Shown here piece by piece: positions 1 through 45,026 of a stretch of DNA of 64,000 nt (position 1 is the first letter of the stretch; every line of letters begins with the position of its first letter). Origin of the DNA: a virus; IMG/VR virus record IMGVR_UViG_3300042514_001858, positions 90,168-154,167 of that record. One strand, given 5' to 3'. The notes beneath the pieces are model-generated. The model was not told the origin of the DNA. It worked only from the letters and a program-made list of their open reading frames with translations, and made no database searches. Made by a program: the position numbers and the translations under genes.

Positions 1-904
1 CAATATATTTGATATCTGACTTTGATTTATTGAAATTATTATCCATCAAAGGTGCGAGAGTTAATTGCACATTTAGTTCGGAAATAAATTTCGGATAATT
101 TGTCAATGTCTGCCAATGATGAAATTCAATTTCTCCATTTTGAATGTATGGATGCAATTGTGGAGGAAATGCACCAATGAAAATGAATTGATATTTATAC
201 CTATTATCGATAATAAATTTCAAAACATGGGAAAAATCGTCTTGCCCTCCTTTTTTCACATCAAAGTGCGCTCCTGAGCCAGAATATAAAATTCTTGGTT
301 TTTTACGATTTTTATCGTAATTTTTAGCAATTTTATAAGAATCATAATAATGTCCAATCCACCATTCAGGTGGGAAATTTGGAATCACAGAGATTTTATC
401 TTGACCTGTTTTTTCAATAAACAAATCACGCATGAACTTACACGTGACTGTGACTTCATCTGCCATTCGCATCATGTCAACGCAATTTTGACGGATTTCG
501 TCATTATCGAACGATGGTTTTCCTGAATTATAATCAGGAATTTCTTCGCGAAATACAACATCATCTACTTCATAGATAATCTTGAATCCCATTTCTGCTT
601 GAATGCTCTTGAGAAATTCAAAATATTGTTTTTGAGGGGTAGATGCTTGTCTTTGTAATTTGACGGTTTTAATATCTCTAAACCAATTTTTATCTAAAAT
701 CATCTTAGTAAGTGATGTGGACTCACCAAGATTATTCATATTGATATGATGTTCATGCCAACCTATTCGCCATTGACCACATCCCTGACGATCTGCTACA
801 AAATTTAAATAGACATTACCTTTTTTGGGTTCTTCTTTATTTTTATTTTGGACTTGAAAGGGGTTTGTTGGAAAAGGAGATGCAAACGGTTGACTATTAA
901 ACAT
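1..904 (-). CDS. Glycosyltransferase-like protein, truncated by the window edge (not in the ORF track)
   Basis: Hand translation from ATG 904: MFNSQPF...NFVADRQGCGQWRIGW...KIIYEVDDVVFREEIPDYN. The GCGxWR and YEVDD motifs are typical of phage glycosyltransferases. Confidence 0.65.
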   Translation of the reverse strand, partial: MFNSQPFASPFPTNPFQVQNKNKEEPKKGNVYLNFVADRQGCGQWRIGWHEHHINMNNLGESTSLTKMILDKNWFRDIKTVKLQRQASTPQKQYFEFLKSIQAEMGFKIIYEVDDVVFREEIPDYNSGKPSFDNDEIRQNCVDMMRMADEVTVTCKFMRDLFIEKTGQDKISVIPNFPPEWWIGHYYDSYKIAKNYDKNRKKPRILYSGSGAHFDVKKGGQDDFSHVLKFIIDNRYKYQFIFIGAFPPQLHPYIQNGEIEFHHWQTLTNYPKFISELNVQLTLAPLMDNNFNKSKSDIKYI

Positions 905-933
905 GTCAATAATTAACCATTTGCTATTATTTG

Positions 934-9894: not shown

Positions 9895-10353
9895 ATGACA
9901 AATTTCAAACAATTCTTTGTGGAGAAAAATATATTCGGTCTAATCGAAGATATTTTCGTTGATGGTATCGGAACTATTTCCTCTAAATTGGATACTGGTA
10001 ACGGTGCTTACAATGTTTTACATGGAGAAGATATTGAATTTGGAGAGGATAAAAAAACAGGCGAGAAGATAGTAAGATTTACAACCATCAATTCCATGAG
10101 ATTAGAAAAACCTACAGAAGACACAATTATAATTAATATCGGAGAAGGAAATACTATTGAAAGACCTGTGTGTCTTTTTGATTGTGTTATAGGAGGTAAA
10201 AAATTTAAAAGTATCCCCTTTTCTATTAGTAATCGATCTACTAATGACCACAAGGTTTTAATCGGAAAAGATTTTATCAAAAATGAATTGGATGCCCTGA
10301 TCGATGTAGCATTAAACAATGTAGCAGACAAAAAATTATCAGTCGATGTATAA
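9895..10353 (+). CDS. Retropepsin-like aspartic protease (RimK-associated type)
   Basis: KLDTGNG catalytic motif, ERPV, VLIGKDFI. Confidence 0.75.
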   Translation: MTNFKQFFVEKNIFGLIEDIFVDGIGTISSKLDTGNGAYNVLHGEDIEFGEDKKTGEKIVRFTTINSMRLEKPTEDTIIINIGEGNTIERPVCLFDCVIGGKKFKSIPFSISNRSTNDHKVLIGKDFIKNELDALIDVALNNVADKKLSVDV

Positions 10354-10900
10354 GTTATCACAAAGAGAATTATTGGAAGAGGGACTTTGGGACAAGTTTA
10401 AGGATTCCAAAGTTGGTAGAGGGCTTCGAAAAGTTGGTCAATTCGGGGCAGAAATTGCTAAAGTAGTTGCTCCAAATACTAGTTCTCAAGTTGGTTCTAT
10501 TGTTCAAAAATACAGAGACGCAAAACAAAATATTTCACAAGCTGGTAGAAAAATGGAAGATAGGGTTATCGAATTTTTAGATGGTTACAGTCTTATGCCT
10601 GATGATTCAGAAGTTAAAATGCTCAAAAGTTTTCCAAATGGTGATTCGCAGTGGAGAGTCAAAGTTGGAAAAAAAGACGTTGATCCAAATACAGGTGAAA
10701 GTAAAGTTGTTCAAAGATATAATTTTCCTATTGCTATAATCCTCCATGATAAAAAAAGCAATTCGTTTAAATTCCTAACAGAACCAGCACAAAGAAGAAC
10801 GGGTGCTGTTAATAATACTACGCCTCCACCATCTACTACGCCTCCACCATCTACTACGCCTCCACCATCTACTACGCCTCCACCAACTACTCGACCATAA
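10346..10900 (+). CDS. Hypothetical protein with a Thr/Pro-rich tail
   Basis: Leader ELLEEGLWDKF; C-terminal (TTPPPS)n. Confidence 0.75.
   Translation: MYKLSQRELLEEGLWDKFKDSKVGRGLRKVGQFGAEIAKVVAPNTSSQVGSIVQKYRDAKQNISQAGRKMEDRVIEFLDGYSLMPDDSEVKMLKSFPNGDSQWRVKVGKKDVDPNTGESKVVQRYNFPIAIILHDKKSNSFKFLTEPAQRRTGAVNNTTPPPSTTPPPSTTPPPSTTPPPTTRP
10816..10885 (+). repeat. 18-bp tandem repeat, ~3.9 copies
   Basis: TACTACGCCTCCACCATC at 10816, 10834 and 10852, partial at 10870. Confidence 0.95.
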
Positions 10901-10936: not shown

Positions 10937-11116
10937 ATGAACGTAGAAATCGTAGTAAAAGAGGATGAGAATTTTAAAATTGTAGACGGTGTAGAAGAAG
11001 CACCGAAAGCTGTTGAGCAACCAATCAAAGTAGAAACACCACAAAAACCACAACCAACCTTGGAAAATCCAAAAGGTCATTCATGGTTTGATGGCACTTC
11101 TTGGGGGACAAAGTGA
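10937..11116 (+). CDS. 59-aa late protein (not in the ORF track)
   Basis: TAAATA 10926-10931, 5 nt before ATG; MNVEIVVKEDENFK...HSWFDGTSWGTK*. Confidence 0.7.
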   Translation: MNVEIVVKEDENFKIVDGVEEAPKAVEQPIKVETPQKPQPTLENPKGHSWFDGTSWGTK

Positions 11117-11886: not shown

Positions 11887-11913
11887 ATGTATTATTATTT
11901 AACAGAAAATCAC

Positions 11914-11941
11914 TTGATTTTTGAGAATATGGTGGTAAATT
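11914..11941 (+). promoter_or_regulatory. Sigma70-type promoter heading the kinase/glycosyltransferase operon
   Basis: TTGATT-N13-TGG-TAAATT, 7 nt before ATG 11949. Confidence 0.6.
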
Positions 11942-11948
11942 AATTAAT

Positions 11949-12686
11949 ATGAAAATTGCATTCGCAGGGGCGCACAATACTGGAAAATCGACACTTATTA
12001 AGTCATTTTTACAAAAATGGCAAATGTATAAAACACCGTCGAAAACATACAGAGATATTATCAAAGAAAAAGATTTGAAACATTCTTCCAATACCACAGC
12101 CGAAACACAATTGCTTATTTTGGATTGGATGACAGAGACTTTAGAAGTTAATAAGGATGAGAAATATGTCGTCTATGATCGTTGTACTTTGGATAATTTG
12201 GCATATACTCTTCATGCTGCTGAGAAAGATTTGATATCGGAGGATGTTCTCGGAATTACTGTAGATATTGTTCGACGTTCTCTGAAAAATCTAGATATTA
12301 TTTTTTGGATTAAATACGATCCCACTATCAAAGTTGTAGCAGACGGATTACGGGATACTAATTTGAATTATATTCAAGAGATTGATGATATCTTTGCTGG
12401 TCTTTATGAACAATATTCAGATCAGCTTGAGAACACACCATTCTTCATTGCTGATGATATGCCAGCAATTATTCCCATTGAAAATATCCCGAATCTTGAT
12501 GATCGAATTGCTTGGATAGGAGAATTTATTGATCAAAAAGGCGAATTAATTGAAACACAGGACAGTATCCTCGATCCTAAAAATCTGGAGATGATGGAAC
12601 AAATGCTAAAAGATCAGAGTCAATGGACGGAAAAAGATAATGAATTCAAGAATATCACAAATCAAATTAAGAATTTTAAAATATGA
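11949..12686 (+). CDS. P-loop nucleoside/nucleotide kinase (AAA_28/dNMP-kinase-like)
   Basis: GAHNTGKST, YDRCTLDNLAY. Confidence 0.75.
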   Translation: MKIAFAGAHNTGKSTLIKSFLQKWQMYKTPSKTYRDIIKEKDLKHSSNTTAETQLLILDWMTETLEVNKDEKYVVYDRCTLDNLAYTLHAAEKDLISEDVLGITVDIVRRSLKNLDIIFWIKYDPTIKVVADGLRDTNLNYIQEIDDIFAGLYEQYSDQLENTPFFIADDMPAIIPIENIPNLDDRIAWIGEFIDQKGELIETQDSILDPKNLEMMEQMLKDQSQWTEKDNEFKNITNQIKNFKI

Positions 12687-13531
12687 GTGAAAAAATCGGA
12701 GTTGGTATTATCACATGTGGAAGAAAATCCATGTTTGAGAAGCTTTTCAATTCTCTTTTGGATTGTGGTGAACAAATTGATTATTTATATGTGGTTGAGG
12801 ATACTAAAACCAATCGCAGTTATGATGATAATTACGCTGTCGATATTGCAAGATCTTGGAAGGGTGAACACATCACAGTGTTCACCCCAACTGCAAATTT
12901 AGGTGTCGCCAAAGCTAAGAATAGCGCATTGGCGCATCTTCTTGATGCAGGATGTGATCATATCTTTCTGATTGAAGATGATATGTTTATTAAAAATCCA
13001 AACATCTTCCAAGCATATATCGACGCTTCTAAGAAAAGTGGTATTCAACATTTGATGTTTGGTTATCATGGACCAGCTAATAAAAATGGAATCTCTCGTG
13101 GTAAACCATATCCTCGATTGGTTGTTGATTATGGGGATTTCTCTCTCGCATTTAATCAGCATTGCGTTGGGGCATTTTGTTATTATTCCAGTAAGTGTCT
13201 AGAAGATGTCGGTCTAATCGATGAAAAATTTCGTAATGCTTTTGATCATGTTTCCCATAGTTATGAACTCGCTTTAAAGGGTTATTCCACTCCTTATTGG
13301 TGGTGGGCTGATCTGGCAAATTCTTTGGATTATATTGAAGAACAAGCGTGTTCAGAGGAAAATTCGTCCATCAAGACACCTGAATCCATGCAGAAATGGA
13401 GTGATAATATTCGAAGTTCCATGGAGTATTTCAAAGAGAAATTTGGCGTATTCCCGTTTGGGAATGATGGTGTCCTAGATACGAGAGAACAGGAAGTATT
13501 GACATTTTTGAAAAATACTATAAATCATTGA
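12683..13531 (+). CDS. Glycosyltransferase, GT2-like
   Basis: IGVGIITCGR, NLGVAKAKN, FLIEDD, VGLIDEKF. Confidence 0.85.
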   Translation: MSEKIGVGIITCGRKSMFEKLFNSLLDCGEQIDYLYVVEDTKTNRSYDDNYAVDIARSWKGEHITVFTPTANLGVAKAKNSALAHLLDAGCDHIFLIEDDMFIKNPNIFQAYIDASKKSGIQHLMFGYHGPANKNGISRGKPYPRLVVDYGDFSLAFNQHCVGAFCYYSSKCLEDVGLIDEKFRNAFDHVSHSYELALKGYSTPYWWWADLANSLDYIEEQACSEENSSIKTPESMQKWSDNIRSSMEYFKEKFGVFPFGNDGVLDTREQEVLTFLKNTINH

Positions 13532-13532
13532 A

Positions 13533-14342
13533 ATGAAATCCGACTTGAATAATATTGGCTTGATGATTCATTTCCGTAGGGACGTGGATGATCGATTTCG
13601 CAATCTAGAAATGGTTGTAAAATTCTATCGTGAAAATTCTGAAAATCTCCAAATCGCCATTCTGAATGATGATAAGGAATTGGATGGGGACTTCAAAAGA
13701 CTCTGTAAGCAATACGATTGTAAAGGTCTTTTTATGGTAAATCATGATGTTTATTGGAGAACCAAGGCATTCAATGAAATGTCTAAGATTCTGGAAGTTG
13801 ATTATCTGATTGCGGGAGATACTGATGTGATCGTTGATCCAAAATATATTCTGGAAGCGAAGCAATTGTTCGATGATAATGTGGGGATCGTGTATCCTTA
13901 CGATGGAATGTTCATTCATTTGAAGCAACCAATGTTTGAAAAATTCATCGCAGATCAATCCTTAGTTGATCTATTGGATAAATCTAAAGCACTTAAACCA
14001 ATCCCATACGATCAGGATGAGAATTTTCTCGTTGCACATCCCCAAAGCAAGGGAGGAATGGTTATGTTTAGTAAAAAAGCTTTTACCGAATGTAATGGGT
14101 ATAATCCAAATTTTAGAGGATGGGGTTATGAAGATGATGAGATCTTAGCTAGATTTCAAAAAATGGGATGGGGGATTTTGAGAGTTGGTAATAAAGAGGC
14201 AATAGCGTGGCATCTACCTCATGAAAATACAGTGAGAGAAAAACACCAATACTATGATAATAATCGGAAACACTCCGATTTCGTTTGTGGTAATACTAAG
14301 TGGGAAGATTTGGAAAAATATATTTGGAGTTGGACACTGTGA
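13533..14342 (+). CDS. Glycosyltransferase, GT-A fold with a GT7-type C-terminal motif
   Basis: GDTDV (DxD), NGYNPNFRGWGYEDDE. Confidence 0.85.
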   Translation: MKSDLNNIGLMIHFRRDVDDRFRNLEMVVKFYRENSENLQIAILNDDKELDGDFKRLCKQYDCKGLFMVNHDVYWRTKAFNEMSKILEVDYLIAGDTDVIVDPKYILEAKQLFDDNVGIVYPYDGMFIHLKQPMFEKFIADQSLVDLLDKSKALKPIPYDQDENFLVAHPQSKGGMVMFSKKAFTECNGYNPNFRGWGYEDDEILARFQKMGWGILRVGNKEAIAWHLPHENTVREKHQYYDNNRKHSDFVCGNTKWEDLEKYIWSWTL

Positions 14343-15037
14343 AACCTAGATTTTCCATATGTGTTCCCGTTTGGGAGCAGCACGGATTTGGTCTTCAGTA
14401 TTTGAAAGATCTGATCCATTCAATCCAAATCCAAACATTTCAGGATTGGGAGATTGTGATTTCTGATCATAGTAAAAATTTTGATATTTTTGATTTTTGT
14501 TTAGCGGAATCGGAGAAAGATTATATATTACGATATTTCAAATACGAGGAAAATTATGGTAATGGTGTTGCCAATCTCAACAATGCTCTGAAAAGAGCGG
14601 AAGGAGAAATCATCAAGATCATGTTTCAAGATGACTTCATGTTTGATCGTAGATGTTTGGAGAAATTCGATAAAGCATTCCAATGTGAAAATAATAAATG
14701 GGCTGTTTGTGGGTGTAATCATACGAGAGATGGTGTGAATTTTGATAGATTCATGGTTCCGTCTTGGAATGATAGATTGTTGGAAGGTGTGAATACAATT
14801 AGTTCTCCGTCCGTGCTATCTTTTAGAAATGAAAATATTGAATTGTTTGATGAGAACTTGACAATGCTCATGGATGTGGCATACTATTATCGAATGAATA
14901 AGCACCACGGATTACCCACGGTGATTGAAGACTGCTTGGTTACTAATCGGTGTCATGAGAATCAGATCAGTAGCAGGTATTCAGGAAATTTAGAAGACGA
15001 GATAAAATATTGTAAAGAAAAATATGATAGTAACTGA
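14339..15037 (+). CDS. Glycosyltransferase, GT2
   Basis: FSICVPVW, EIVISDHS, NLNNALK, MFQDD; GTG 14339 overlaps the upstream TGA. Confidence 0.85.
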   Translation: MKPRFSICVPVWEQHGFGLQYLKDLIHSIQIQTFQDWEIVISDHSKNFDIFDFCLAESEKDYILRYFKYEENYGNGVANLNNALKRAEGEIIKIMFQDDFMFDRRCLEKFDKAFQCENNKWAVCGCNHTRDGVNFDRFMVPSWNDRLLEGVNTISSPSVLSFRNENIELFDENLTMLMDVAYYYRMNKHHGLPTVIEDCLVTNRCHENQISSRYSGNLEDEIKYCKEKYDSN

Positions 15038-15920
15038 AATATACAATGGACAGGGATTAGGTAATCAACTTGCTTGTTACGTGACAACAAGAGTCGTTGC
15101 CAAAGATAAGGGATTTGATTTTGGGATTATGAATCCCCATAAATTTAAATGTTTGGATTTTATGGATTTAGATTTTGGATTACCCGTGATAGGTGGATAT
15201 TCAGAAAAAGAAGGCGATATACCCATTACTTTACCAGATGGTATTCAACATTCTTTCAAAGAAAGATGGTTGTATCTCTCAAATGGTTCCAATGTAACTA
15301 TCGATGATCCTAATTTAGAATTGATTCAAGATAACACACAAATTATCGGAATTTTTCAATCGGAAGATCGTATCATCCACCGCAAAGATGAAATTAGGCA
15401 GTGGTTGAAAATTAAACCAGAAAAGGATTGTTATGATTATTCTGATCCAAATATCTGCATCATTAATTATCGTGGCGGGGAATATGCAAGTGTTGCCGAT
15501 TTTCATTTGAATGGAAAGTATTGGGATGATGCGATTACCAGAATGAGACAAATTAACCCAAATTTTAGATTCGTTGTTATCACTGATGATGTAGAAAGAG
15601 CAAGCAGACAATTCCCTGATTTTGAAGTGAAACATTATGATATTGGAACAGATTTCACTATTATCAAGAATGCTCATTATTTGATTTTATCAAATTCCAG
15701 CTTCCCGTATTTTGCCACTTTACTAAGTGATACTGTAAAGTATATATTAGCTCCTAAATATTGGGGTCGCTATAATATATCAGATGGTTATTGGGCATGT
15801 GGCTACAACATTTTCAGGGATCATGTCTATATTGATAGGGAAGGAACATTGTTTGGATATGATGAATGTGTGGCAGAATTTGAAGAGTATAAGAAACGCG
15901 ACCCCAATTTTTGGAAATGA
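15024..15920 (+). CDS. GT11-like (alpha-1,2-fucosyltransferase family) glycosyltransferase
   Basis: GQGLGNQL, GIFQSE, NYRGGEY, LSNSSF. Confidence 0.8.
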   Translation: MIVTEIYNGQGLGNQLACYVTTRVVAKDKGFDFGIMNPHKFKCLDFMDLDFGLPVIGGYSEKEGDIPITLPDGIQHSFKERWLYLSNGSNVTIDDPNLELIQDNTQIIGIFQSEDRIIHRKDEIRQWLKIKPEKDCYDYSDPNICIINYRGGEYASVADFHLNGKYWDDAITRMRQINPNFRFVVITDDVERASRQFPDFEVKHYDIGTDFTIIKNAHYLILSNSSFPYFATLLSDTVKYILAPKYWGRYNISDGYWACGYNIFRDHVYIDREGTLFGYDECVAEFEEYKKRDPNFWK

Positions 15921-16708
15921 TCTACGACATTTTTAGCTTTAATAACGAACTTGACATGTTGGAATTGAGATTGAATATTCTCGATCCCTACGTGGATAAA
16001 TTTGTATTGGTAGAAGCGGATAAGACTTTCAGTGGTGTTGATAAGCCTTTGTATTACGAAGAGAATAAGGAACGCTTTGAGAAATTCCATGACAAGATTA
16101 TTCATTACAAGGTTCTAGATTCTCCAACATCGTTTGATGATCCAAATTGCGATCAGGAAATCTTACAGATGGCACTCAACAGTGATATGGTAACACGAGA
16201 ACATATATGCTGGGTCGTTGAATTTTATCAGAAAGAATCTATTAAAAAAGCTTTAATTAATTTGGAAGATGACGATATTTGCATAATTTCTGATGTTGAT
16301 GAAATATGGAATTATGATATATCATTATCTCCAAATGGGGAAGAAATTTTGAAACCATTAATTAATAATTGCTATATAGAATATCTTAACGTTAAAACAA
16401 ATGAAAATTGGACATATTTTACTGGTCCTATAATCACTAGATATGAAAATATTAAAAATATTAATCCAATGTGTCATTTAAGAGTATTGAAAAAATTTCA
16501 ACATCTCTATAAGTTTATAGAGAATGGTGGATGGCATTTTAATGCTTTGGGTGGAATACAGAAAAAGATTGAAGATTTTAAGCATCCAGTATATCATAGT
16601 GGATACATGGAAATGAGAAAAAATGGATATAGAATAGACGAAGTAGGATTGCCTATATTCATTTTAGAAAATATGGATAAATTAAAAAATAAGAAATTAA
16701 TATTATAA
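15917..16708 (+). CDS. GT17-like beta-1,4-N-acetylglucosaminyltransferase
   Basis: YDIFSFNNELDMLELRL, VDKFVLVEA, TFSG..KPLYY, SDVDEI, GGWHF. Confidence 0.85.
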   Translation: MIYDIFSFNNELDMLELRLNILDPYVDKFVLVEADKTFSGVDKPLYYEENKERFEKFHDKIIHYKVLDSPTSFDDPNCDQEILQMALNSDMVTREHICWVVEFYQKESIKKALINLEDDDICIISDVDEIWNYDISLSPNGEEILKPLINNCYIEYLNVKTNENWTYFTGPIITRYENIKNINPMCHLRVLKKFQHLYKFIENGGWHFNALGGIQKKIEDFKHPVYHSGYMEMRKNGYRIDEVGLPIFILENMDKLKNKKLIL

Positions 16709-16709
16709 T

Positions 16710-17336
16710 ATGAATATAGAAAATAATGGAGAAAGAATGGATATTGATTATTTCAATATGGAGTATGAAAATTTTGACATTTATCAGAAAAGTCATTATA
16801 AAAGATATGAATTTGCTAAAACTTTAATGAACGAAGGTGATATTGTCGGAGATATGGCATGTGGTTCTGGGTATGGTAGTATGATGCTTTTAGAAAAAAG
16901 TAAAGAAGTTTATTCTGTCGATATTGATCCAATCACTATCAATGAAGTTGCTAATAGATACGAAAATGAAAATATCCATTTTGTTGTTGGAGATTTAATA
17001 GACCTAAAAGTTGAAAATAAATTTGATAAGATTGTCTCATTTGAAACACTGGAGCATTTTACTCCAGATGATTTGAAAAAAGTCATAACAAATTTTCACA
17101 AAGCCTTGAAAAAAGATGGTAAATTAATTTTTTCCACTCCTTATAATCAAGAACAATCAGAAGCATCGATGAGATTTCATAAGACATTCTACATAACAGA
17201 GAATACCATTAATCAATTTTTCAAAAATTTATTCGAGATTGATATAATCAAATATCAAGATTATCAAACACATACTGTAAAAGACGATGATGGGAATAAG
17301 AATTTTATTATAGGAGTTGTTAAAAAAATAAGTTAA
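16710..17336 (+). CDS. Class I SAM-dependent methyltransferase
   Basis: HYKRYEFA, DMACGSGYG, SFETLEH, LIFSTP. Confidence 0.88.
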   Translation: MNIENNGERMDIDYFNMEYENFDIYQKSHYKRYEFAKTLMNEGDIVGDMACGSGYGSMMLLEKSKEVYSVDIDPITINEVANRYENENIHFVVGDLIDLKVENKFDKIVSFETLEHFTPDDLKKVITNFHKALKKDGKLIFSTPYNQEQSEASMRFHKTFYITENTINQFFKNLFEIDIIKYQDYQTHTVKDDDGNKNFIIGVVKKIS

Positions 17337-17340
17337 AAAT

Positions 17341-18075
17341 ATGAAAAAAATAAATAAAAATTTTGTAGTTGTCAGTGATTACAATTGGCTACCTGAAAAT
17401 CTTGAAGATTCTTGGGTTGATAAATGGTGTGAAAATTATCTAATTTATGATCGTTATCATCGATTTCCCGAATCTGAAAAAGTAAAGCATCAGAAAAATG
17501 TGGGGCAGAATGTTTATGATATATTCCATTTTATTTTAGAAAATTATGACAATCTTCCCGATTCCACATTGTTTTGTCGTGCGTGTCTAATGAATCAAAA
17601 GGATACTGGAACTCCACGATACGATGAAAATGGCAGGATCATCTCTAATGGAAATTGCACGGAAGAATTTTTTCTTGATATTGCTAACAACACTAGATTT
17701 ACAGAGATTCAAGATTTCACCAGTGAGCCTTGGAGGATAAATTATATCGAAAATGCTATTGGACCTGAAAATAGTTATCTTGAGCGCAATACTTCATGGT
17801 ATTTTGGAAAACATCAGGGAAAATATTATTCAAATATTAATGATTTTTTCAATGACATGTATGAAAATCCTGAGATTCCACCTTGGTTTAGATTTGCACC
17901 AGGTGTTAATTACATCATCCCAAAGGAGTATATTTTGAAATATTCGAGAAAATTTTATCAACGAATTCTTGATATTCTCGGATGGGATGTTATTGTTGGA
18001 GAAGCTCATATGATTGAGCGAGCATTGTGGACAATATTCCATAATGATTGGAAAGTTAAAGAAGAATATAGATAA
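17341..18075 (+). CDS. Hypothetical protein, DUF3431-like (glycan-cluster associated)
   Basis: NVGQNVYDIFHFILENYDNLPD, FAPGVNYII, AHMIERALWTIF. Confidence 0.55.
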   Translation: MKKINKNFVVVSDYNWLPENLEDSWVDKWCENYLIYDRYHRFPESEKVKHQKNVGQNVYDIFHFILENYDNLPDSTLFCRACLMNQKDTGTPRYDENGRIISNGNCTEEFFLDIANNTRFTEIQDFTSEPWRINYIENAIGPENSYLERNTSWYFGKHQGKYYSNINDFFNDMYENPEIPPWFRFAPGVNYIIPKEYILKYSRKFYQRILDILGWDVIVGEAHMIERALWTIFHNDWKVKEEYR

Positions 18076-18141
18076 TGCAACCATTTAAGAAACATCCCAC
18101 CCCCCGCCGAAACATTCAACCATACCGAATTTTTTGATCTG

Positions 18142-18624
18142 TTGTTCAAATGGATTCGTCCAGAACACTATCTTGAACTTGGTGTGAGGCATGGAGGCAA
18201 TTTTGTCACGCTTGCCAAACACTGCAAAAAAGCAGTCGGAGTGGATATGATTCCTGCTGAATTTGGTTTGGAGGGTAATATGGAATATCATCAAAAAACA
18301 ACTGATGATTATTTTGAATCATTAACTACTGAACAATTTGATGCCGTGTTTATTGACGCTGATCATTCTCATCAACAATCTTTGAAAGATTTTAACAATG
18401 TAAAAGATAGAGTGATCGAAGATGGATTTATTTTCTTCCATGATACCTATCCTTGGGATTGGTCTATGACTGACAGAGGACAATGCGAGGATGTTTATAA
18501 AACTGCGAAACATATTAAACAAAATTTAATAGATGATTTTGAAATCATAACTTTACCTTTCAATCCTGGAGTAACAATTTGTAAAAAGATTTCCAGAACG
18601 AAACAAATGATCTATGACTGGTGA
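18142..18624 (+). CDS. SAM-dependent methyltransferase (Methyltransf_24-like); 5' end appears frameshifted from ATG 18075
   Basis: YLELGVRHG, FIDADH, GFIFFHDT. Confidence 0.8.
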   Translation: MFKWIRPEHYLELGVRHGGNFVTLAKHCKKAVGVDMIPAEFGLEGNMEYHQKTTDDYFESLTTEQFDAVFIDADHSHQQSLKDFNNVKDRVIEDGFIFFHDTYPWDWSMTDRGQCEDVYKTAKHIKQNLIDDFEIITLPFNPGVTICKKISRTKQMIYDW

Positions 18625-19543
18625 AAAAATTTTCATAACGGGCGGTGCTGGATTTCTTGGTAGAAATCTAATTCGTCGCTTACATCAAGATAATGAAATC
18701 ACCGTGTATTCACGCGATGAGTCCAAACATTATTATCTAAAAAAAGAATACCCAAAAGTAAATTTTGTGGTTGGGGATATTCGCAATCGTGATCTATTGA
18801 TTAGAAAATCAAGGTATCATACGATTGGTATTTTTGCAGCATCTCTGAAACAGATTGAAGCCTGTAATGACAATTATGAAGAAGCTTCAAAAATCATTAT
18901 CGATGGTGCAATCAATTCCAGAATTGCAGCAGAGGAAAATAATTTCAAAGCTGCTTGCTTCATCTCATCTGATAAAAGCAGAGCAGCAACTACAATTTAT
19001 GGTGCAATGAAATATGTAGCTGGTGAGTGTTTCATTGCAGGTAAATCAAATTGTAACCTAACTACTGCCGTATATGGAAACGTAATGAATTCCACAGGAT
19101 CGATTATTCCTTTGATATGGGAATATATCAAAAACGGTAAAACACTTTCTCTCTATGGAGAAGAAATGACAAGATTTTTATTGGATGTTGAAGATGCTGT
19201 AGATTTGATTTTGAAATCTTTAAAGTATAAAGGATGTAATGTTATCCCAGATTTAAAATCGTTTTTTGTAGTCGATCTTTTCAATATTTATAAAGAAAAA
19301 TTTGGATTAAAATATGAAATTTCTGAACCTAGAACTGGTGAAAAAATTCATGAAATCATGGCTTCTTCTGAAGAAATTAGACGAATGAGTTATGAATATG
19401 CTGATGATATTTATTTGATGTATCCACATAAAGATTTAAATATGGTAGAATTTTCAAAAAATGAATATTCTTCGAGAGATAGTTCACTTGAATATATAGA
19501 ACTTGAAAAATATTTAAAATCTAAAAATTATTTTAAACCATGA
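18614..19543 (+). CDS. UDP-GlcNAc 4,6-dehydratase (CapD/PseB/FnlA family)
   Basis: ITGGAGFLG, YSRDESK, GDIRN, SSDK, YGAMK, YGNVMNSTGS, MTRF, GEKIHE. Confidence 0.88.
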   Translation: MTGEKIFITGGAGFLGRNLIRRLHQDNEITVYSRDESKHYYLKKEYPKVNFVVGDIRNRDLLIRKSRYHTIGIFAASLKQIEACNDNYEEASKIIIDGAINSRIAAEENNFKAACFISSDKSRAATTIYGAMKYVAGECFIAGKSNCNLTTAVYGNVMNSTGSIIPLIWEYIKNGKTLSLYGEEMTRFLLDVEDAVDLILKSLKYKGCNVIPDLKSFFVVDLFNIYKEKFGLKYEISEPRTGEKIHEIMASSEEIRRMSYEYADDIYLMYPHKDLNMVEFSKNEYSSRDSSLEYIELEKYLKSKNYFKP

Positions 19544-20337
19544 AAATTATAGTATTTGGAAGCACTGGAATGTTGGGAACTTATTGTGTCAAGTTTTTCA
19601 AACAAAAAGGTTATACGGTATTACCAGTAGATAGAGAAATGTTAGATTTGACATCATCTCATGAAAATATATTAAATTTTTTGATATCGAATGTTTCTAG
19701 TGTGGATGTTATAATTAATGCTGCTGGTGTTATTAAACAACGAAACACTGATATAGGTGATATGTATAAAGTTAATACTATATTTCCTCACATTTTATCT
19801 AAATTTAAAATGGAAAATGGGTGTAATGTTATCCATATAACGACTGATTGCGTGTTTAGTGGTAAAGATGGGTATTATAATGAATCATCTTTACCTGATT
19901 GTGAAGATGATTACGGTAAATCTAAATTATTAGGCGAAGCACCTAATTTATCAATCATTAGGACTTCTATTATTGGTGAAGAAATTAATAATAAATTATC
20001 ATTACTTGAGTGGTGTAAGTCTAAACGCGAACAAACTGTCTATGGATATGTCGATCATTATTGGAACGGTGTAACATGTTTAGAATTGTGTAAAAGAATA
20101 AATCAATTATTGGAATATAAATCGTTTTGGGAGGGTGTTAGTATTTTACATTCACCAGAGATCGTATCGAAGTATAATTTAATCAATATGATTTCCGATG
20201 TATTTGATTTACAAATATCAATAACTCCAAAAATCGGTGGTAAATGTTATAGAAATTTACAAAATGTGCGATGCATACCGACAGCATCATTGAAACAACA
20301 ATTAGAAGAATTGAAAGAATTTAATATATATGAATAG
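19540..20337 (+). CDS. RmlD-like NDP-4-keto-6-deoxysugar reductase
   Basis: GSTGMLG, INAAG, HITTDCVFSG, YGKSKLLGE, RTSIIG. Confidence 0.88.
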   Translation: MKIIVFGSTGMLGTYCVKFFKQKGYTVLPVDREMLDLTSSHENILNFLISNVSSVDVIINAAGVIKQRNTDIGDMYKVNTIFPHILSKFKMENGCNVIHITTDCVFSGKDGYYNESSLPDCEDDYGKSKLLGEAPNLSIIRTSIIGEEINNKLSLLEWCKSKREQTVYGYVDHYWNGVTCLELCKRINQLLEYKSFWEGVSILHSPEIVSKYNLINMISDVFDLQISITPKIGGKCYRNLQNVRCIPTASLKQQLEELKEFNIYE

Positions 20338-21094
20338 TTGCTATGTAAATGTTATTGGTGGCGTGGGCAATCAGTTATTTCAAATAGCTGCTGGTTATGC
20401 TTATGCCAAGAAACATGGTAAGAAATTGATCATCAACCCTTATAATTGGTTTGCTGGTCAGGGGTCTAATCCTCTAGTGTATAAAGATAACATTTTTAAA
20501 AATTTTGAATATGGTAATTATAGTGGAAATGTCGTTCCTATTCAAGAAAAAAGATTTAATTATGATGAATTACCCTTCATAGAAGGCTCTGTATCATTGA
20601 ATGGATATTTCCAATCTTTGAAATACTTCGAAGAATACAAAGATGAATTTATTTCTTTATTGAACTTGCCAGAAGTCGATGTTCTTCCTAAATGGGGAAA
20701 CAATCTGAATATTGCATTTCATATAAGACGAGGTGATTACTTGAACCATGCAACAATACATTATGTGTGTAGAACCGAATACTTTAATAAATTATTTGAT
20801 ATTTTCACACCTGAAATAGTAAAGAATACTAAAATTCTTGTATTTACAGATTCACCCGAAATTGTTTTAGAAGAATTTAAAGGCAAAGAATTTATTATAA
20901 TGAAATCAGATTCTGATATTAAAGAACTTGCATACATGTCAAAGTGTGATATCGTAGTGGGGAGCAACTCTACCTTTTCTTGGTGTGCAGCTTTGATTGG
21001 TGATAAGACATCTTATTTCCCTTCCAAGTGGTTCGCAGATGGTGGAGAAGCGACTGATATTTACTACGATAAAATGATTAAATGTAATGTTTGA
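20330..21094 (+). CDS. GT11-like glycosyltransferase
   Basis: GGVGNQLFQ, GYFQS, HIRRGDY, SNSTFSW. Confidence 0.9.
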   Translation: MNSCYVNVIGGVGNQLFQIAAGYAYAKKHGKKLIINPYNWFAGQGSNPLVYKDNIFKNFEYGNYSGNVVPIQEKRFNYDELPFIEGSVSLNGYFQSLKYFEEYKDEFISLLNLPEVDVLPKWGNNLNIAFHIRRGDYLNHATIHYVCRTEYFNKLFDIFTPEIVKNTKILVFTDSPEIVLEEFKGKEFIIMKSDSDIKELAYMSKCDIVVGSNSTFSWCAALIGDKTSYFPSKWFADGGEATDIYYDKMIKCNV

Positions 21095-21866
21095 AATTAA
21101 TAAAATATATAATGAAAATTGTCTGGATACTATGAATAGTATGCCAGAAGAATCCATTGATTTAACTGTTACCAGCCCTCCATATGATGATTTGCGAACT
21201 TATAATGGTTATTCTTTCGACTTTGAAAATGTAGCCAAGGGGCTTTTCAAAGTCACTAAGAAAGGTGGAGTTGTTGTTTGGGTAGTTGGTGATCAGACAA
21301 AAGATGGTGATAAATCTGGAACGAGTTTCCGACAAGCTCTTTACTTCAAAGAAATTGGCTTCAAATTACATGATGTCATCATTTATGAGAAGAGTGGTGT
21401 CTCACCAGTGAAAAATAGATATTACCCTGCATTTGAATATATGTTTGTTTTATCCAAAGATAAAATCAAAACATTCAATCCTATTTGCGATAGACCAAAT
21501 AAATGGAGAGAGCGTTGGGGTAAGACTCGCCAACGTAGAAAAGCAGATGGAACTATGGGTGAGAAATATGAAAGTAAGATTGCTCCTGAATTTGGTATTC
21601 GACGTAACATTTGGAAGTATACACAAGGAGGTGGTTATGGGTCTGATGATAAAATCGCATATAAACATCCAGCAATCTTTCCCGAAAAATTAGCAGAAGA
21701 TCATATTTTAAGTTGGTCAAATGAAGGCGATTTGGTATACGATCCATTCATGGGAAGTGGGACTACTGCTAAAATGGCAAAGCTAAATAATAGAAATTAC
21801 ATTGGTAGTGAGATCAGTGGGGAATATATAAACATCATCAATAATCGCTTATGTTTAACACAATAA
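21087..21866 (+). CDS. DNA N4-C/N6-A methyltransferase (beta class)
   Basis: VTSPPY, HPAIFP, DPFMGSGTT. Confidence 0.92.
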   Translation: MFEINKIYNENCLDTMNSMPEESIDLTVTSPPYDDLRTYNGYSFDFENVAKGLFKVTKKGGVVVWVVGDQTKDGDKSGTSFRQALYFKEIGFKLHDVIIYEKSGVSPVKNRYYPAFEYMFVLSKDKIKTFNPICDRPNKWRERWGKTRQRRKADGTMGEKYESKIAPEFGIRRNIWKYTQGGGYGSDDKIAYKHPAIFPEKLAEDHILSWSNEGDLVYDPFMGSGTTAKMAKLNNRNYIGSEISGEYINIINNRLCLTQ

Positions 21867-22111
21867 ATCACATTCTTTTTGATAAGAAAGGGGAGATGAC
21901 AAATGAATTGTTGGAAGAGTTCTCTCCTTATATGGTGACTCGTTACTTGAGTTTCTATGATAAAGATCTGTTGAATTATGCTAATGAGACAGTGAACAGA
22001 TACTCACAGATATTCGATACGGATGAAGAAGCATTTCGATTCTTTGAAAATGTGATTCCCAAATTGAAACGAAAAAATATCAAATATATATCCAAAAAAA
22101 GAGAAAAATGA
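21851..22111 (+). CDS. gp62: Clamp-loader small subunit-like
   Basis: FSPYMVTRYLS...YANETVN...FRFFENVIPKLKRK resembles the gp62 core. Confidence 0.55.
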   Translation: MFNTINHILFDKKGEMTNELLEEFSPYMVTRYLSFYDKDLLNYANETVNRYSQIFDTDEEAFRFFENVIPKLKRKNIKYISKKREK

Positions 22112-22722
22112 ATGCTTTAAATAATTTTTTCAAAAAAATCTATTGTATAAATTTGGATAGACGACCTGATCGTTGGGAACATGCTTCCAAACAATTTGAA
22201 AAATTTGGAATAAATGTTGAGAGATTTTCTGCAATAGATCATGAACATTTGGATAACATACCTCCAAATATTAAGCGAGGAGCATACGGATGCACATTAA
22301 GTCATTGTGGAATAATTGAAAAGTGTAAAAACGATAATGTTGAAAATGTTTTGATTTTTGAAGACGATGTTGTATTGGACGATGATATTTTAAACGTTTT
22401 TGAAAATAATATAAATCATATTCCGAGATGGGATATGATTTATTTTGGAGGGTATCACATACATCGCCCAACGCACATAGAAAAAAATATCTACAAATTG
22501 CATTATAGCTATGCGTTGCATAGCTACGCATGTAATCACACCATGTATGATATTTTACTAAAACTCGAAAACCATATTTGTTTTGATGTTAGTGTAGCAG
22601 AAATCCATAATACGCATGATTGTTTTTTACTTACCAAAGATGACGGTTCATCTTTGACAAAACAATATTTAAATTTTAGTGATATTGAAAATGGATATAA
22701 AGATTATACGAATATACTATGA
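22108..22722 (+). CDS. GT25-like glycosyltransferase
   Basis: YCINLDRRPDRW, ERFSAID, GCTLSH, LIFEDD. Confidence 0.88.
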   Translation: MNALNNFFKKIYCINLDRRPDRWEHASKQFEKFGINVERFSAIDHEHLDNIPPNIKRGAYGCTLSHCGIIEKCKNDNVENVLIFEDDVVLDDDILNVFENNINHIPRWDMIYFGGYHIHRPTHIEKNIYKLHYSYALHSYACNHTMYDILLKLENHICFDVSVAEIHNTHDCFLLTKDDGSSLTKQYLNFSDIENGYKDYTNIL

Positions 22723-23486
22723 AAGCACTTGTTGTATGTCCAACTTATGGAAGACTCCCTTATCTGGGGAGATTGTTAGCATCATTTTTACATCAAGACT
22801 ATGATGACAAGCATTTGGTTATCATCAATGATGATAAAAAAATCACATTGGAATGTGATTATGATAATGTCACTGTTATGAATTTGACCAAAAAGATATC
22901 GGTAGGGGAAAAAAGAAACTTGGGGGCAGCATACGGACATTTTGATGTGATACATCCATGGGATGATGATGATATTTTCTTACCCAACCGTTTATCAAAT
23001 CATATGAAACAATACGCCGATCCTTCTGTGGAAGCATACAGAAATTTTCCCTCATATACTATATATGCGGATAAATTTGCTTCGTGTAGTGGGGGGACGA
23101 ACAATAAATCATATCGAAAAAAAATGTTTTTTGATGTTGGAGGATATGGCAGCACTAATAATTTTCAAGAAGATGCGGAATTACATCACAAATTAAGAAA
23201 TTTTAAAAAAGATGAAAATGAAAATGAACGCGATTTTGTTTATGGATTTTCAACATCTAATTTTCATTTATCGTGTCAACCCACGGAATTACAAATACAA
23301 AAAATTTCATATGACCAATTAATAGAATTAAATTTATTAAACAAAAAATTTATCATAACGCCTGACTTCGATGAATATAATAAATATCTACTGTTAGATG
23401 AAATTTTTAAAAAAAAGGGTGAAAGTATTGAGATTGATGTCTTACCAAATGGTAAAATTAAAATACTAAATGTGGACAATGAATGA
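22719..23486 (+). CDS. Glycosyltransferase, GT2
   Basis: VCPTYGR, QDY, LVIIND, GEKRN, WDDDD. Confidence 0.85.
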   Translation: MKALVVCPTYGRLPYLGRLLASFLHQDYDDKHLVIINDDKKITLECDYDNVTVMNLTKKISVGEKRNLGAAYGHFDVIHPWDDDDIFLPNRLSNHMKQYADPSVEAYRNFPSYTIYADKFASCSGGTNNKSYRKKMFFDVGGYGSTNNFQEDAELHHKLRNFKKDENENERDFVYGFSTSNFHLSCQPTELQIQKISYDQLIELNLLNKKFIITPDFDEYNKYLLLDEIFKKKGESIEIDVLPNGKIKILNVDNE

Positions 23487-23523
23487 TTACGTATTCATGC
23501 ATATTCCCAACGCAGGTAGAGGA

Positions 23524-24042
23524 TCAATCCTCCATATAAAAAGATTCCAAAAATTGTGATATTCTTTTATTATATTCAATTGCTAAGTTCTTTCCCTGCT
23601 CTATTGAAATCCCGTTTCTTTTGTGTAGGGACGTGGCAATATCTTTAAGATTTCTATAACATACAACAAATTGAGGATTTGGTAGATGTTTATACCAAGC
23701 ATCTATGGTCAATGATGTTCTAGGATCTTTAAACCCCCAACTTTCCATATTTTTACTCTGTGCTGTTGCAACCTCATCAGCGACGATCCGTTTAATATGA
23801 TCTTCATAATTTTTACCAATTTCAATTATTTTTTCTCTTGGTGGGGGATCAAACCAACTACCACCAGAATTGTGTAATATCTCATCATTTATTTTAATTA
23901 TCTCAATGTTTTCATAATGACCCTTTGGATTGTCTACTAATCCGATCAACAATTTTTTTCCCATATGAACTTCAGAATTTAAAGTTCTGGCAACTAATGA
24001 GGTTGCTGATCTATGCATTCCCAATACGACTATTGTTTTCAT
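23524..24042 (-). CDS. Sulfotransferase-family protein
   Basis: VLGMHRSATS PAPS-binding loop, NPKGHYE, WGFKDPRT. Confidence 0.8.
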   Translation of the reverse strand: MKTIVVLGMHRSATSLVARTLNSEVHMGKKLLIGLVDNPKGHYENIEIIKINDEILHNSGGSWFDPPPREKIIEIGKNYEDHIKRIVADEVATAQSKNMESWGFKDPRTSLTIDAWYKHLPNPQFVVCYRNLKDIATSLHKRNGISIEQGKNLAIEYNKRISQFLESFYMED

Positions 24043-24782
24043 ATTTTCAAATAATTTTCTAAAAGTTGTTTATAGTCGGTGTTCCATTTTGGCTTTAGTT
24101 CAATATCACCAATTGGAATTTTTCCCTCTTTTTTTAAATTATCAATGTGTTTCGAATGTCTAATAATTACATTTTCTCTATCTGGTGTATCCTTACTTTG
24201 ACCCGACATATGATAACTTCTACCGCCCCATAAATACATCCACGAAATTTCTTCATCTGGTGGGGAAGCATTTACCACTCTACAATTATATTCTCCTTTC
24301 AATTTAATAACAAATGACATATCATATCCCGCATTTTCAAGAGGATGTTTACTCGATCTCTCCCATATCTCTTTAGTATAAATGATGCCAGAATTTCCCA
24401 GAGAAGTCAGAGCATGTATTTTATTATGATTAACCAACGCACCTCTATTCCAATGAAGTAAATCGTAACTTGGAAAATATTTGTTTATATTACCTAAGTG
24501 ATTCGATAATGCAATATCATCATCATCCCAAACTGCTATTGTATTGTAGCTACAATTTTCTACCGCAAAATTTTCCTTAGCTCCAATTGTTTCAAATGTT
24601 TTATCGAAATTAATTATTTTAACTTTCGGGTGATCGAAATATAATTTTTGTTCAGGATAGTCATTCACGATAACCATCTCACTATCACCATCATATTCTT
24701 GATTTAAAAAACTGTATAATGATTCTTCTAATAAATCAACTCGTCCGTATGTGATACATTTACATGAAATAGGAATTGCCAT
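24039..24782 (-). CDS. Glycosyltransferase, GT2 (paralogue of 22719)
   Basis: CITYGR, QEY, VIVND, GAKEN, WDDDD; TAAATA 7 nt upstream. Confidence 0.85.
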   Translation of the reverse strand: MAIPISCKCITYGRVDLLEESLYSFLNQEYDGDSEMVIVNDYPEQKLYFDHPKVKIINFDKTFETIGAKENFAVENCSYNTIAVWDDDDIALSNHLGNINKYFPSYDLLHWNRGALVNHNKIHALTSLGNSGIIYTKEIWERSSKHPLENAGYDMSFVIKLKGEYNCRVVNASPPDEEISWMYLWGGRSYHMSGQSKDTPDRENVIIRHSKHIDNLKKEGKIPIGDIELKPKWNTDYKQLLENYLKI

Positions 24783-24845
24783 ATTTGTTTATTTAATAAT
24801 AAAAAAATATTCATTGACAAATAAATAATACCAATAAATATATTT

Positions 24846-31270: not shown

Positions 31271-31313
31271 TCTATTTAATTGAATAATTGAAGATTCCCC
31301 CTAAATAATAAGT

Positions 31314-39659: not shown

Positions 39660-39683
39660 AACATAATCTTTATTAAAAAACAT

Positions 39684-41949: not shown

Positions 41950-41986
41950 AACATAAAAAAGTTATATCAAATCTCTAAATAATATT

Positions 41987-44998: not shown

Positions 44999-45026
44999 AA
45001 TTTGATCAATTTTGCTAAATAATAAT

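Follow-up and report, generated by a model that had tools for sequence, protein, structure and literature searches.

What does a tailed phage assemble with twelve kilobases of sugar chemistry, and onto what? The question is posed by a 64-kb stretch of viral DNA, called the window throughout, which forms the last 64 kb of a 154-kb IMG/VR contig (IMGVR_UViG_3300042514_001858; G000:C1:90168-154167) with an estimated completeness of 75%. Between window positions 12683 and 24782 it holds an island with nine glycosyltransferases (GTs), comprising four GT2, one beta4GalT-type 7C, two GT11, one GT17 and one GT25, together with a PseB/FnlA-type 4,6-dehydratase, an RmlD-like reductase, two S-adenosylmethionine (SAM) methyltransferases, a Sulfotransfer_3 protein and a DUF3431 protein. 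Our proposal, in which we would place about even confidence, is that the island is a cytoplasmic glycan factory that decorates proteins of the phage particle. A more specific form of it, possible rather than probable, is that these phages have a serotype system of their own, in which a fixed mucin-like acceptor and a priming GT2 are combined with a recombining, early-expressed island, giving near-identical phages different coats; no description of such a counterpart of bacterial O-antigen diversity was found for any T4-like phage.

The phage itself is a distant T4-like myovirus. Its portal, sheath stabiliser, prohead protease and major capsid protein are recognisable by PHROG and Pfam, as are SbcCD-type gp46/47, helicases, ribonucleotide reductase and a T4-type core that includes gp23, gp20, gp3 and gp21, and its major capsid protein is 33% identical to cyanomyophage gp23 (tblastn). 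The sequencing runs that hold the island are lake-water metagenomes from 23 studies, and more than half of the sampled words of the phage are present in 16 lake-water runs, an abundance that would permit tests on environmental samples; megablast of the island against cultured phages returned no matches. We compared the contig (G000) with the relatives G001, G003 (complete, 207 kb, with terminal repeats), G004 and the divergent G005. With the kinase-like gene at 11949 as query, 42 related loci were retrieved, and ten complete islands were compared: that of G000, five from long contigs and four within loci.

A soluble glycan island

Every gene that the sequence-only reading had named was found in place by Pfam, NCBIfam and PHROG. 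Together with the kinase-like gene that opens its operon, the island is composed as follows, with fractions referring to the ten islands compared.

11949-12686, plus strand: P-loop nucleoside/nucleotide-kinase-like gene (AAA_28; Pfam E 6.7e-14; PHROG thymidylate kinase E 6.5e-19)
12683-13531, plus strand: GT2a, GT-A fold, EDD motif at residues 98-100 (PHROG glycosyltransferase E 2e-23; AlphaFold pLDDT 93)
13533-14342, plus strand: GT7C, a GT-A glycosyltransferase with a beta-1,4-galactosyltransferase-type C-terminal motif (Glyco_transf_7C; Pfam E 9.2e-15, 54.5 bits; E 1e-5 against beta4GalT1/7 in the PDB)
14300-15037, plus strand: GT2b (Pfam GT2 E 6.6e-10); start codon uncertain (GTG)
15024-15920, plus strand: GT11a, GT11-like (fucosyltransferase family; Pfam 21.4 bits, under cut-off); grouped with the relatives' GT11 family by BLASTP, but lacking an exact HxRRGDY motif
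15911-16708, plus strand: GT17 (Pfam E 4.3e-23, 82.4 bits); likely true start ATG 15917
16710-17336, plus strand: class I SAM methyltransferase (Pfam Methyltransf_25 E 2.8e-17); this island only, 1/10
17341-18075, plus strand: DUF3431 protein (Pfam E 2.1e-7; AlphaFold pLDDT 92)
18142-18624, plus strand: Methyltransf_24, TylF/O-methyltransferase-like (Pfam E 3.1e-14); 6/10
18614-19543, plus strand: UDP-N-acetylhexosamine (HexNAc) 4,6-dehydratase of PseB/FnlA/Mg534 type (Pfam Polysacc_synt_2 E 5.7e-41; GGAGFLG, Y129xxxK)
19540-20337, plus strand: RmlD-like 4-reductase, 265 aa (Pfam RmlD_sub_bind E 2.6e-18; GSTGMLG, Y125xxxK)
20330-21094, plus strand: GT11b, fucosyltransferase family (Pfam E 1.7e-13), with the HIRRGDY motif of alpha-1,2-fucosyltransferases
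21087-21866, plus strand: N6/N4 DNA methyltransferase (Pfam N6_N4_Mtase E 6.3e-44, 151 bits; NCBIfam adenine-specific methyltransferases); 3/10
21851-22111, plus strand: gp62-like clamp-loader small subunit (phrog_225 E 3.3e-6); 9/10
22108-22722, plus strand: GT25, in the second variable slot (Pfam E 5.2e-20); 2/10
22719-23486, plus strand: GT2c, in the second variable slot (Pfam E 7.3e-11)
23524-24042, minus strand: short sulfotransferase (Pfam Sulfotransfer_3 E 6.7e-7, 30.2 bits against a cut-off of 27); this island only, 1/10
24039-24782, minus strand: GT2d, first gene of the minus-strand pair (Pfam E 1.3e-6); 85% identical to its homologue in L039

The 12-kb range first read as a glycan cluster holds as an inventory but not throughout, because two of its genes, the N6/N4 DNA methyltransferase and the gp62-like gene, are not glycan genes. 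The genes are mostly coupled, as had been claimed, with junction overlaps of 4-16 nt or gaps of 1-4 nt. This does not hold at the doubtful GTG start of GT2b, where 43 nt overlap, or ahead of the second methyltransferase, where 66 nt separate the genes. Transmembrane segments are lacking, no 19-residue window reaching a Kyte-Doolittle mean of 1.6 except in one Rossmann strand. G+C-content in the island is 29-37%, like that of the remaining window.

This solubility is a property of the whole group. None of the 159 open reading frames (ORFs) in the ten islands encodes a credible membrane protein, and no initiating phosphoglycosyltransferase, flippase, ABC transporter, polymerase or ligase is found among the 25 commonest Pfam families of those islands. 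Neither the G000 contig nor the complete G003 encodes a multi-pass protein of the size of Wzx, Wzy or WecA. The absence of export, priming and base-hydroxymethylase genes, first noted for the window, extends to the whole 154-kb contig and to the relatives.

Some individual assignments need qualification. GT2a scores 17.9 bits with the Pfam GT2 model, under the cut-off. Metagenomes contain at least 843 homologues of it, and of 233 matching records from cultured phages 214 are Mycobacterium phages, in which the homologues lie in terminal 3-GT operons. A PDB sequence search with GT2a gave nothing useful, and a fold search returned generic GT-A relatives (WrtF, GnT-I, TarS/P, AvpGT) at TM-scores of about 0.5, with unnamed phage and megavirus GTs in a viral fold library (GT domain of a Bandra megavirus protein, TM 0.68). 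For the DUF3431 protein, Foldseek produced weak GT-A matches, none below E 0.001, and the PDB sequence search nothing useful; with VIA-align Z is at most 7.4 (WbbM, then MGS, TarP/S), all matches being GT-A or nucleotidyltransferase folds, and its atlas clusters are 73-89% viral. On its predicted structure it is probably a tenth, divergent GT-A-like transferase, the range of Z supporting a shared fold class alone.

The kinase-like gene, first in the operon and present in 42 of the 42 loci, falls in viral atlas clusters with dNK or cytidylate-kinase hints, and is probably not a glycan enzyme. Roles as a sugar kinase or an adenosine 5'-phosphosulfate (APS) kinase were considered for this AAA_28 gene and dropped, since it is nucleotide-kinase-like and a core gene in all relatives, whatever the content of their islands.

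A fixed slot with mosaic content

The position of the island is constant. Glycan genes follow the kinase-like gene in all 42 related loci, and in the ten islands this gene is always the left border, while the right border is always the gp62-like gene, followed by a GroES-like gene, two small genes and a helicase. The gp62-like gene, conserved and always ahead of the GroES-like gene, divides the island into two variable slots. Content, by contrast, is mosaic: 136 island ORFs fall into 44 families, 24 of which were found once. GT2a occurs in all ten islands, GT7C, GT11 (two copies each) and GT17 in nine, and GT2b in eight, so that six core GTs (GT2a, GT7C, GT2b, two GT11 and GT17) are accompanied by accessory genes that vary. 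The pooled repertoire is wholly glycan chemistry, and includes GT2, GT11, GT17, GT7C, GT25, epimerases/dehydratases, RmlD-like reductases, UDP-galactopyranose mutase, C- and O-methyltransferases, DUF3431 and DUF5672.

One close relative (L002) shares 99.6% identity with this phage for 4.1 kb, as far as base 12714, which lies a short way into GT2a; beyond it, identity falls to 79-92% with indels. Because identity breaks at this base, the slot is, as judged from these alignments, a recombination hot spot, similar to an O-antigen locus between conserved flanks. Both this break and the presence of 44 families in only ten islands indicate that an exposed structure is under diversifying selection.

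The glycan island of G003 and G004 is interrupted after the reductase and before GT11b by genes for the fibre, prohead protease, gp67-like protein, scaffold and major capsid protein (L046:5258-14484 in G003; matching part of L048 in G004). A homologue of the fibre gene at 35330 directly follows the island reductase gene, and the island flanks the block of head genes, an arrangement that looks like the transposition of a module relative to the G000 phage.

Further genes were observed in the neighbourhood of the island in relatives. With the inserted block of G003 and G004 come a gene for a TnsA-like endonuclease (L046:11088-11552, E 2.3e-18) and another of DUF723/Mom-like type. Just upstream of the island in G005 (72141-74436; L068), gene N-termini resemble by eye QueE and QueD of the 7-deazaguanine pathway, and the HSWFDGTSWG that closes a 59-aa ORF of the window (10937-11116) is similar to the C-terminal end of the QueD-like protein of G005.

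Separate promoter classes for glycan and virion genes

Enrichment of 8-mers over all upstream regions yielded one dominant motif, TAAATAAT, with 40 exact sites, which ends about 3 nt ahead of the ATG; leaders would therefore be very short or lacking. These sites precede portal, protease, scaffold-region, neck and fibre genes (for example, at window 31300-31313, 41973-41986 and 45013-45026). We take TAAATAAT to be the late promoter of the phage and a relative of the T4 motif TATAAATA. One-mismatch variants (TAAATAAA, TAAGTAAT, TAAATACT, TAAATATT) stand at the same position ahead of 26 genes, against about 3 expected. The exact motif occurs at no GT gene of the main operon, and the promoters recognised in the island are of two kinds:

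11914-11941, plus strand: sigma70-type promoter of the island operon, with -35 TTGATT at 11914-11919, a 16-nt spacer and extended -10 TGGTAAATT at 11933-11941
24788-24795, minus strand: late-like promoter variant TAAATAAA, 13 nt ahead of the GT2d start; the L039 homologue also carries TAAATAAA

The sigma70-type promoter sits 7 nt ahead of the ATG at 11949. Its -35 and TGnTAAnTT elements and their spacing are kept in relatives down to about 50% identity, and are not seen in the 42% relatives L040 and L041. A generic sigma70 scan shows no excess (89 sites, against 86 in shuffles) and is uninformative, so that the call of an early promoter rests on conservation in relatives. GT7C is preceded at -12 by a one-mismatch variant, TAAATCAT, and relatives conserve a TTGAC -35 element there. 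In G003 and G004, GT11b has its own TTGACA-N17-TGTTAAGAT promoter and the inserted structural genes retain the late motif, the promoter class changing exactly at the boundaries between glycan and structural genes. We infer from these motifs that the main operon is transcribed early by the host sigma70 polymerase.

Within the island a late-like motif is found only at the GT2d-sulfotransferase pair; TAAATAAA also precedes the fibre gene at 37611 (-10) and a 466-aa Ser/Thr-rich gene (-11). A strong late-type motif is carried by phoH (window 11894-11901, minus strand; position weight matrix score 18.1), divergent from the sigma70-type promoter of the island and 13 nt apart from it.

Candidate acceptors among phage proteins

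A genome-wide composition scan returned one extreme outlier, which lies outside the window:

Genome 64540-65187 (L061:5541-6188): mucin-like protein, 215 aa, 60% Ser/Thr

In this protein (TS)n and TSAPPPTSPP repeats are followed by a conserved Cys-Pro-rich part with a CC-PPP segment, then by a stretch of some 15 Thr, and the C-terminus reads C..CNKLGF. Its gene closes a late operon that includes a Gp10_C baseplate gene and two Mtd_N fibre genes, and a GT2 gene (L061:6200-7039, genome to 66038) starts 11 nt after it. The pair is kept in G001, G003 and G004, although the repeat region is hypervariable. In a survey of 74 related loci with enough upstream DNA, a mucin-like protein was encoded 13-16 nt upstream of the GT2 in about 26 of about 30 loci whose GT2 is at least 58% identical, and several more distant GT2 loci have other Thr-rich ORFs upstream. 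So tight a linkage points to an enzyme and its substrate. A PDB sequence search with this fibre-adjacent GT2 gave nothing useful; no sulfotransferase was seen beside it, the 252-aa gene neighbouring it being RlaP-like.

In a distant subfamily of these GT2 (44-54% identity; several of L118-L154) the upstream gene encodes a conserved Cys-rich protein ending ...WKCTKLCHFCKNNWP...GFDIGFYEAPG, which is not Thr-rich and may be another partner or substrate.

Ser/Thr-rich late proteins encoded in the window had been proposed as acceptors from the sequence alone, and the following concern us here:

10346-10900, plus strand: late gene whose product ends in NNTTPPPSTTPPPSTTPPPSTTPPPTTRP, that is (TTPPPS)4 (tail codons about 10817-10897); candidate O-glycan acceptor
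35330-37594, plus strand: coiled-coil fibre protein, its C-terminal part variable and rich in Ser, Thr and Gly (phrog_18673 tail fibre E 1.3e-5)
37611-39659, plus strand: fibre-like protein, 26% Ser/Thr; candidate acceptor

The products of 37611 and 45027 are indeed Ser/Thr-rich, at 26-27%. The 10346 gene lies within a run headed by late motifs at 8532 and 9417, and its product has no family match; the (TTPPPS)4 end exists, but the number of repeats varies and the tail is absent in several relatives. A T-T-P-P-P motif is common to this end and to the mucin-like protein. Judged by composition and linkage, the mucin-like protein would be a much better acceptor candidate than any of those proposed earlier. 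The 3' part of the fibre-like gene at 37611 also stands out in base composition, G+C being 0.457 at window 38001-40000 against about 0.33 elsewhere, which accompanies a composition rich in Thr, Ser, Gly and Ala.

Sugar donors, tailoring and an outlying glycosyltransferase

The dehydratase matches the NCBIfam models for PseB (E 2.5e-48) and FnlA (E 1.3e-34), with scores that fall well short of the equivalog cut-offs in either case, and its best PDB match, over the full length, is 4TQG (E 4.1e-34). This structure is Mg534 of Megavirus chilensis, which, with the RmlD-like Mg535, yields UDP-L-N-acetylrhamnosamine (UDP-L-RhaNAc) for fibril glycans (PMC9614988). The island reductase matches RmlD-type reductases in the PDB at up to E 1e-13 and, at 265 aa, is in the size class of Mg535 (270 aa); GxxGxxG and YxxxK are retained in both of these short-chain dehydrogenase/reductase enzymes. 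The N-terminal GMHRSATS of the sulfotransferase resembles a loop that binds 3'-phosphoadenosine 5'-phosphosulfate (PAPS). No APS kinase was found in the G000 contig, and the sulfate donor, PAPS, would thus have to be supplied by the host or by genes in the quarter of the genome that is missing.

Other sugar genes lie elsewhere in the genome. A 681-aa nucleoside diphosphate (NDP)-sugar 4,6-dehydratase (L157:4581-6626, genome 20580-22625) is interrupted by an intein-like insert, which splits the Epimerase/GDP_Man_Dehyd match in two (Intein_splicing E 9.5e-7, under cut-off). Genes for an RmlA-like nucleotidyltransferase and an RmlD-like reductase (L158:4532-6233, genome 34531-36232) adjoin the gp44 clamp-loader gene; one clamp-loader gene thus adjoins sugar genes, and another, gp62-like, sits within the glycan island. 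At the left edge of the window is a further candidate:

2-937, minus strand: 3' part of the gene for a putative glycosyltransferase of 395 aa, which lies behind gp47/gp46 (phrog_7162, E 2e-19 with the full protein)

The sequence-only reading had placed a GT at 1-904; the phrog_7162 match agrees with this, but the protein has no Pfam or PDB sequence match.

What does the island glycosylate?

Several observations weigh against a target on the virion. The island has no physical or phylogenetic tie to the mucin-like protein, and neither that protein nor its GT2 is present in the divergent G005, which has an island. The major capsid protein is not Ser/Thr-rich, the predicted fold of GT2a has matches that are uninformative on its acceptor, and comparison with the mycobacteriophage Che8 reveals no detectable similarity between GT2a and gp108 (BLASTP E 0.09) and no tblastn matches of the island GTs on the Che8 GT locus (gp108-110). 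None of the 24 sequencing runs listed with the sequence is an RNA run, all the lake-water and other metagenomes being recorded as DNA. The GT25, GT11 and GT2 families are typical of the outer cores of lipooligosaccharide (LOS) and lipopolysaccharide (LPS). The step from soluble enzymes to a cytoplasmic phage substrate is also weaker than first stated: the solubility stands, but the GTs of bacterial LOS and O units are soluble or peripheral too, and use host carriers and exporters. Finally, all recognisable virion genes are driven by the late promoter, which the main operon does not have; with a sigma70-type promoter instead, it is not co-regulated with them. This last point is no bar to virion glycosylation, however, since in chloroviruses the GT genes proposed to act on the capsid protein are early ones as well (PMC9614988).

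The strongest rival, a serious one although we think it somewhat unlikely, is that the enzymes remodel the host envelope. Early soluble GTs would extend the host lipid A-core, or an undecaprenyl-linked unit, at the inner face of the inner membrane; MsbA/Lpt, or the Wzx and ligase of the host, would export the product, and the altered surface would block superinfection or prevent progeny from sticking to debris. The sigma70-type (early) promoters at the operon, and at GT11b in G003 and G004, suit such a rapid change of surface. LOS-type synthesis requires no phage flippase or polymerase, the mosaic variation fits an arms race with competing phages, and the affinities of the GT families, all soluble here, are compatible with this target, though compatibility is all that they offer. 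It is also the standard view of GT clusters in T4-like pelagimyophages and cyanophages (PMC7029224, PMC12801897). However, among their 25 commonest Pfam families the ten islands show no Kdo-, heptose- or lipid-directed enzyme and no priming transferase, they encode no membrane protein, and a lytic phage is short of time for a ten-step rebuilding of the surface. The genome has, moreover, a dedicated mucin-like acceptor with its own GT2 in a baseplate operon, and in relatives the island adjoins fibre and head genes. A mixed or different target is decidedly less likely; here the glycans would be placed on more than one acceptor (virion proteins and the host surface), on non-virion phage or host proteins, or on a soluble product. 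The two promoter classes in the island, sigma70-type for the main operon and late-like TAAATAAA for GT2d and the sulfotransferase, and the two independent variable slots separated by the gp62-like gene would fit such a division, but this is a residual category without positive evidence for a further target.

Phage DNA had been named beside host lipid as an alternative substrate, and while host lipid stands as a rival, DNA is now a very improbable one. The proposition would be that a modified base carries the glycan made by the GTs, as it does in T4, RB69 or TET-associated systems, and this draws on the T4-like nature of the phage, on a marginal TAGT match of GT2a (E 0.006), on the DNA methyltransferase within the island, and on the 395-aa putative GT behind gp47/gp46, which is roughly the position of a-gt on the T4 map. 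One route to DNA glycans employs a C5-methyltransferase and a TET enzyme, but both DNA methyltransferases seen here are of the N6/N4 type, not C5, and Tet_JBP (PF12851) had no matches in G000, in a search whose positive control matched nowhere. Glycosylation of 5-hydroxymethylcytosine (hmC), 5-hydroxymethyluracil (hmU) and 5-hydroxycytosine (5hoC) begins instead with a thymidylate-synthase homologue (PMC13326640), and none (PF00303) is present in G000, G001, the complete G003, G004 or G005, the control being positive in 10 of 14 genomes. No island protein matches the Pfam families of T4 alpha- or beta-GT, and ten GTs with methylation and sulfation far exceed any known DNA glycan.

Analogues in other systems

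Among T4-like phages, GT clusters are described in P-SSM2, S-SCSM1, S-SCSM2R (13 GTs) and the host recognition cluster of pelagimyophages (PMC12801897, PMC7029224). The present island resembles these in belonging to a T4-like aquatic myovirus and in having many small GT2, GT11 and GT25 genes with NDP-sugar enzymes in a hyperplastic region. Over at least 96% of their length, GT11b shares 30-32% identity with GT11 genes from Synechococcus phage ACG-2014f, and GT17 shares 31% with GT17 genes from Synechococcus phages; GT2a, with its mycobacteriophage matches, is the exception. The island differs in its fixed slot between the kinase-like gene and the gp62- and GroES-like genes, and in that strain-level cassette swapping, promoter class and a paired mucin-like acceptor candidate are documented here. 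The papers on cyanophages and pelagimyophages favour host O-chain or DNA targets (PMC12801897, PMC7029224).

Virion glycosylation has analogues in less related viruses. A phage-encoded operon of soluble GTs is a likeness to Che8-type mycobacteriophages, as is the Thr/Pro-rich C-terminal tail of the 10346 product: in the 2023 work of Freeman et al. (cited in PMC11256854 and PMC12619734), Che8 and other cluster F1 mycobacteriophages reportedly bear glycans at the C-termini of capsid and tail-tube subunits. The 3-GT operon of the M. abscessus phage phiGD20-1 holds weak homologues (24% identity) of GT2a and GT7C. Those systems have two or three GTs, against about ten here, and no known donor pathway, methylation or sulfation, and the hosts here are probably Gram-negative-type aquatic bacteria. 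Giant-virus clusters, such as mg534-mg539 of Megavirus chilensis, the clade-specific clusters of Megavirinae and the GTs of chlorovirus PBCV-1 (PMC9614988, PMC10117803), share, by homology only, a virus-encoded donor pathway (the Mg534/Mg535-like pair), soluble GTs and O-methylated rare sugars; in them too, cluster content differs between clades, and their GT genes are early, as is presumed here. Here, in contrast, the virus is a tailed T4-like bacteriophage in a prokaryotic cytoplasm with T4-type regulation, and the resemblance is one of function and not of membership. The acceptors would be mucin-like O-sites, rather than fibril proteins or the N-sequon-independent sites of chloroviruses, and variation is at strain level, by recombination at one slot.

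A further parallel is with bacterial O-antigen and LOS loci, which likewise combine conserved flanks with a mosaic interior, the same GT families, donors of 6-deoxy-HexNAc and rhamnose, and O-methyl capping; sulfation occurs in some rhizobial LPS. Unlike O-antigen and capsule loci, neither the ten islands, judged by their 25 commonest Pfam families and by membrane proteins, nor G003, judged by multi-pass proteins, has an initiating phosphoglycosyltransferase, flippase, polymerase, ABC transporter or ligase.

A model for particle glycosylation

The proposal that the island decorates phage particles draws on the GTs with their donor and tailoring enzymes, on the lack of membrane proteins, on the mucin-like/GT2 pair, on the fibre and head genes next to the island in G003 and G004, on the Mg534 relationship of the dehydratase and on the mycobacteriophage homologues of GT2a. 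We envisage the following sequence. Host RNA polymerase would read the main operon from the sigma70-type promoter, so that enzymes and donors build up before the structural proteins. The dehydratase and reductase would convert UDP-GlcNAc to a UDP-6-deoxy-HexNAc of L-RhaNAc type, and further donors would be supplied by the rhamnose-type pathway elsewhere in the genome (RmlA, the intein-bearing dehydratase, RmlD) and by host pools. A priming GT, for which the fibre-adjacent GT2 is the best candidate and GT2a an alternative, would start the chain at a Thr or Ser residue within the P/T/S repeats, and the six soluble core GTs would lengthen it to an oligosaccharide. The strain-specific GT25, GT2c, GT2d, DUF3431 protein and two methyltransferases, with the late-promoted sulfotransferase, could then vary and cap the glycan. 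Acceptors would be Thr/Ser/Pro-rich stretches of late proteins, chiefly of the mucin-like protein; the fibres and the tail of the 10346 product, (TTPPPS)4, may be others. The timing, the identity of the sugars, each linkage and the connection between island and acceptor are conjectural steps in this model, whereas the gene content, the lack of membrane segments, a slot with mosaic content, the promoter motifs and a mucin-like protein paired with a GT2 were observed. Recombination at the fixed slot would finally give otherwise near-identical phages different glycans.

Implications

GT-rich islands in T4-like aquatic phages are already known, as is virion glycosylation in mycobacteriophages and giant viruses. 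What is new is a fixed slot with strain-level cassette exchange and a six-GT core, sigma70-type control set against a late motif of sharp definition, a complete relative in which the thymidylate-synthase route is excluded, and a mucin-like/GT2 module as a concrete acceptor candidate. To our knowledge, large GT clusters have been recognised in aquatic T4-like phages since P-SSM2, without agreement on what they modify. In this clade there is now a specific pair that can be put to the test, in the form of a hypervariable glycan island and a mucin-like protein with an adjacent GT2 in a baseplate operon. Should the host surface prove to be the target, the island would clearly exemplify a lytic phage that changes the serotype of its host. 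If the glycan is on the virion, the particles of these lake phages would bear strain-specific sugar coats, with consequences for the recognition of hosts, for adhesion to non-host surfaces, for the loss of particles by grazing and decay, and for the definition of phage 'strains'.

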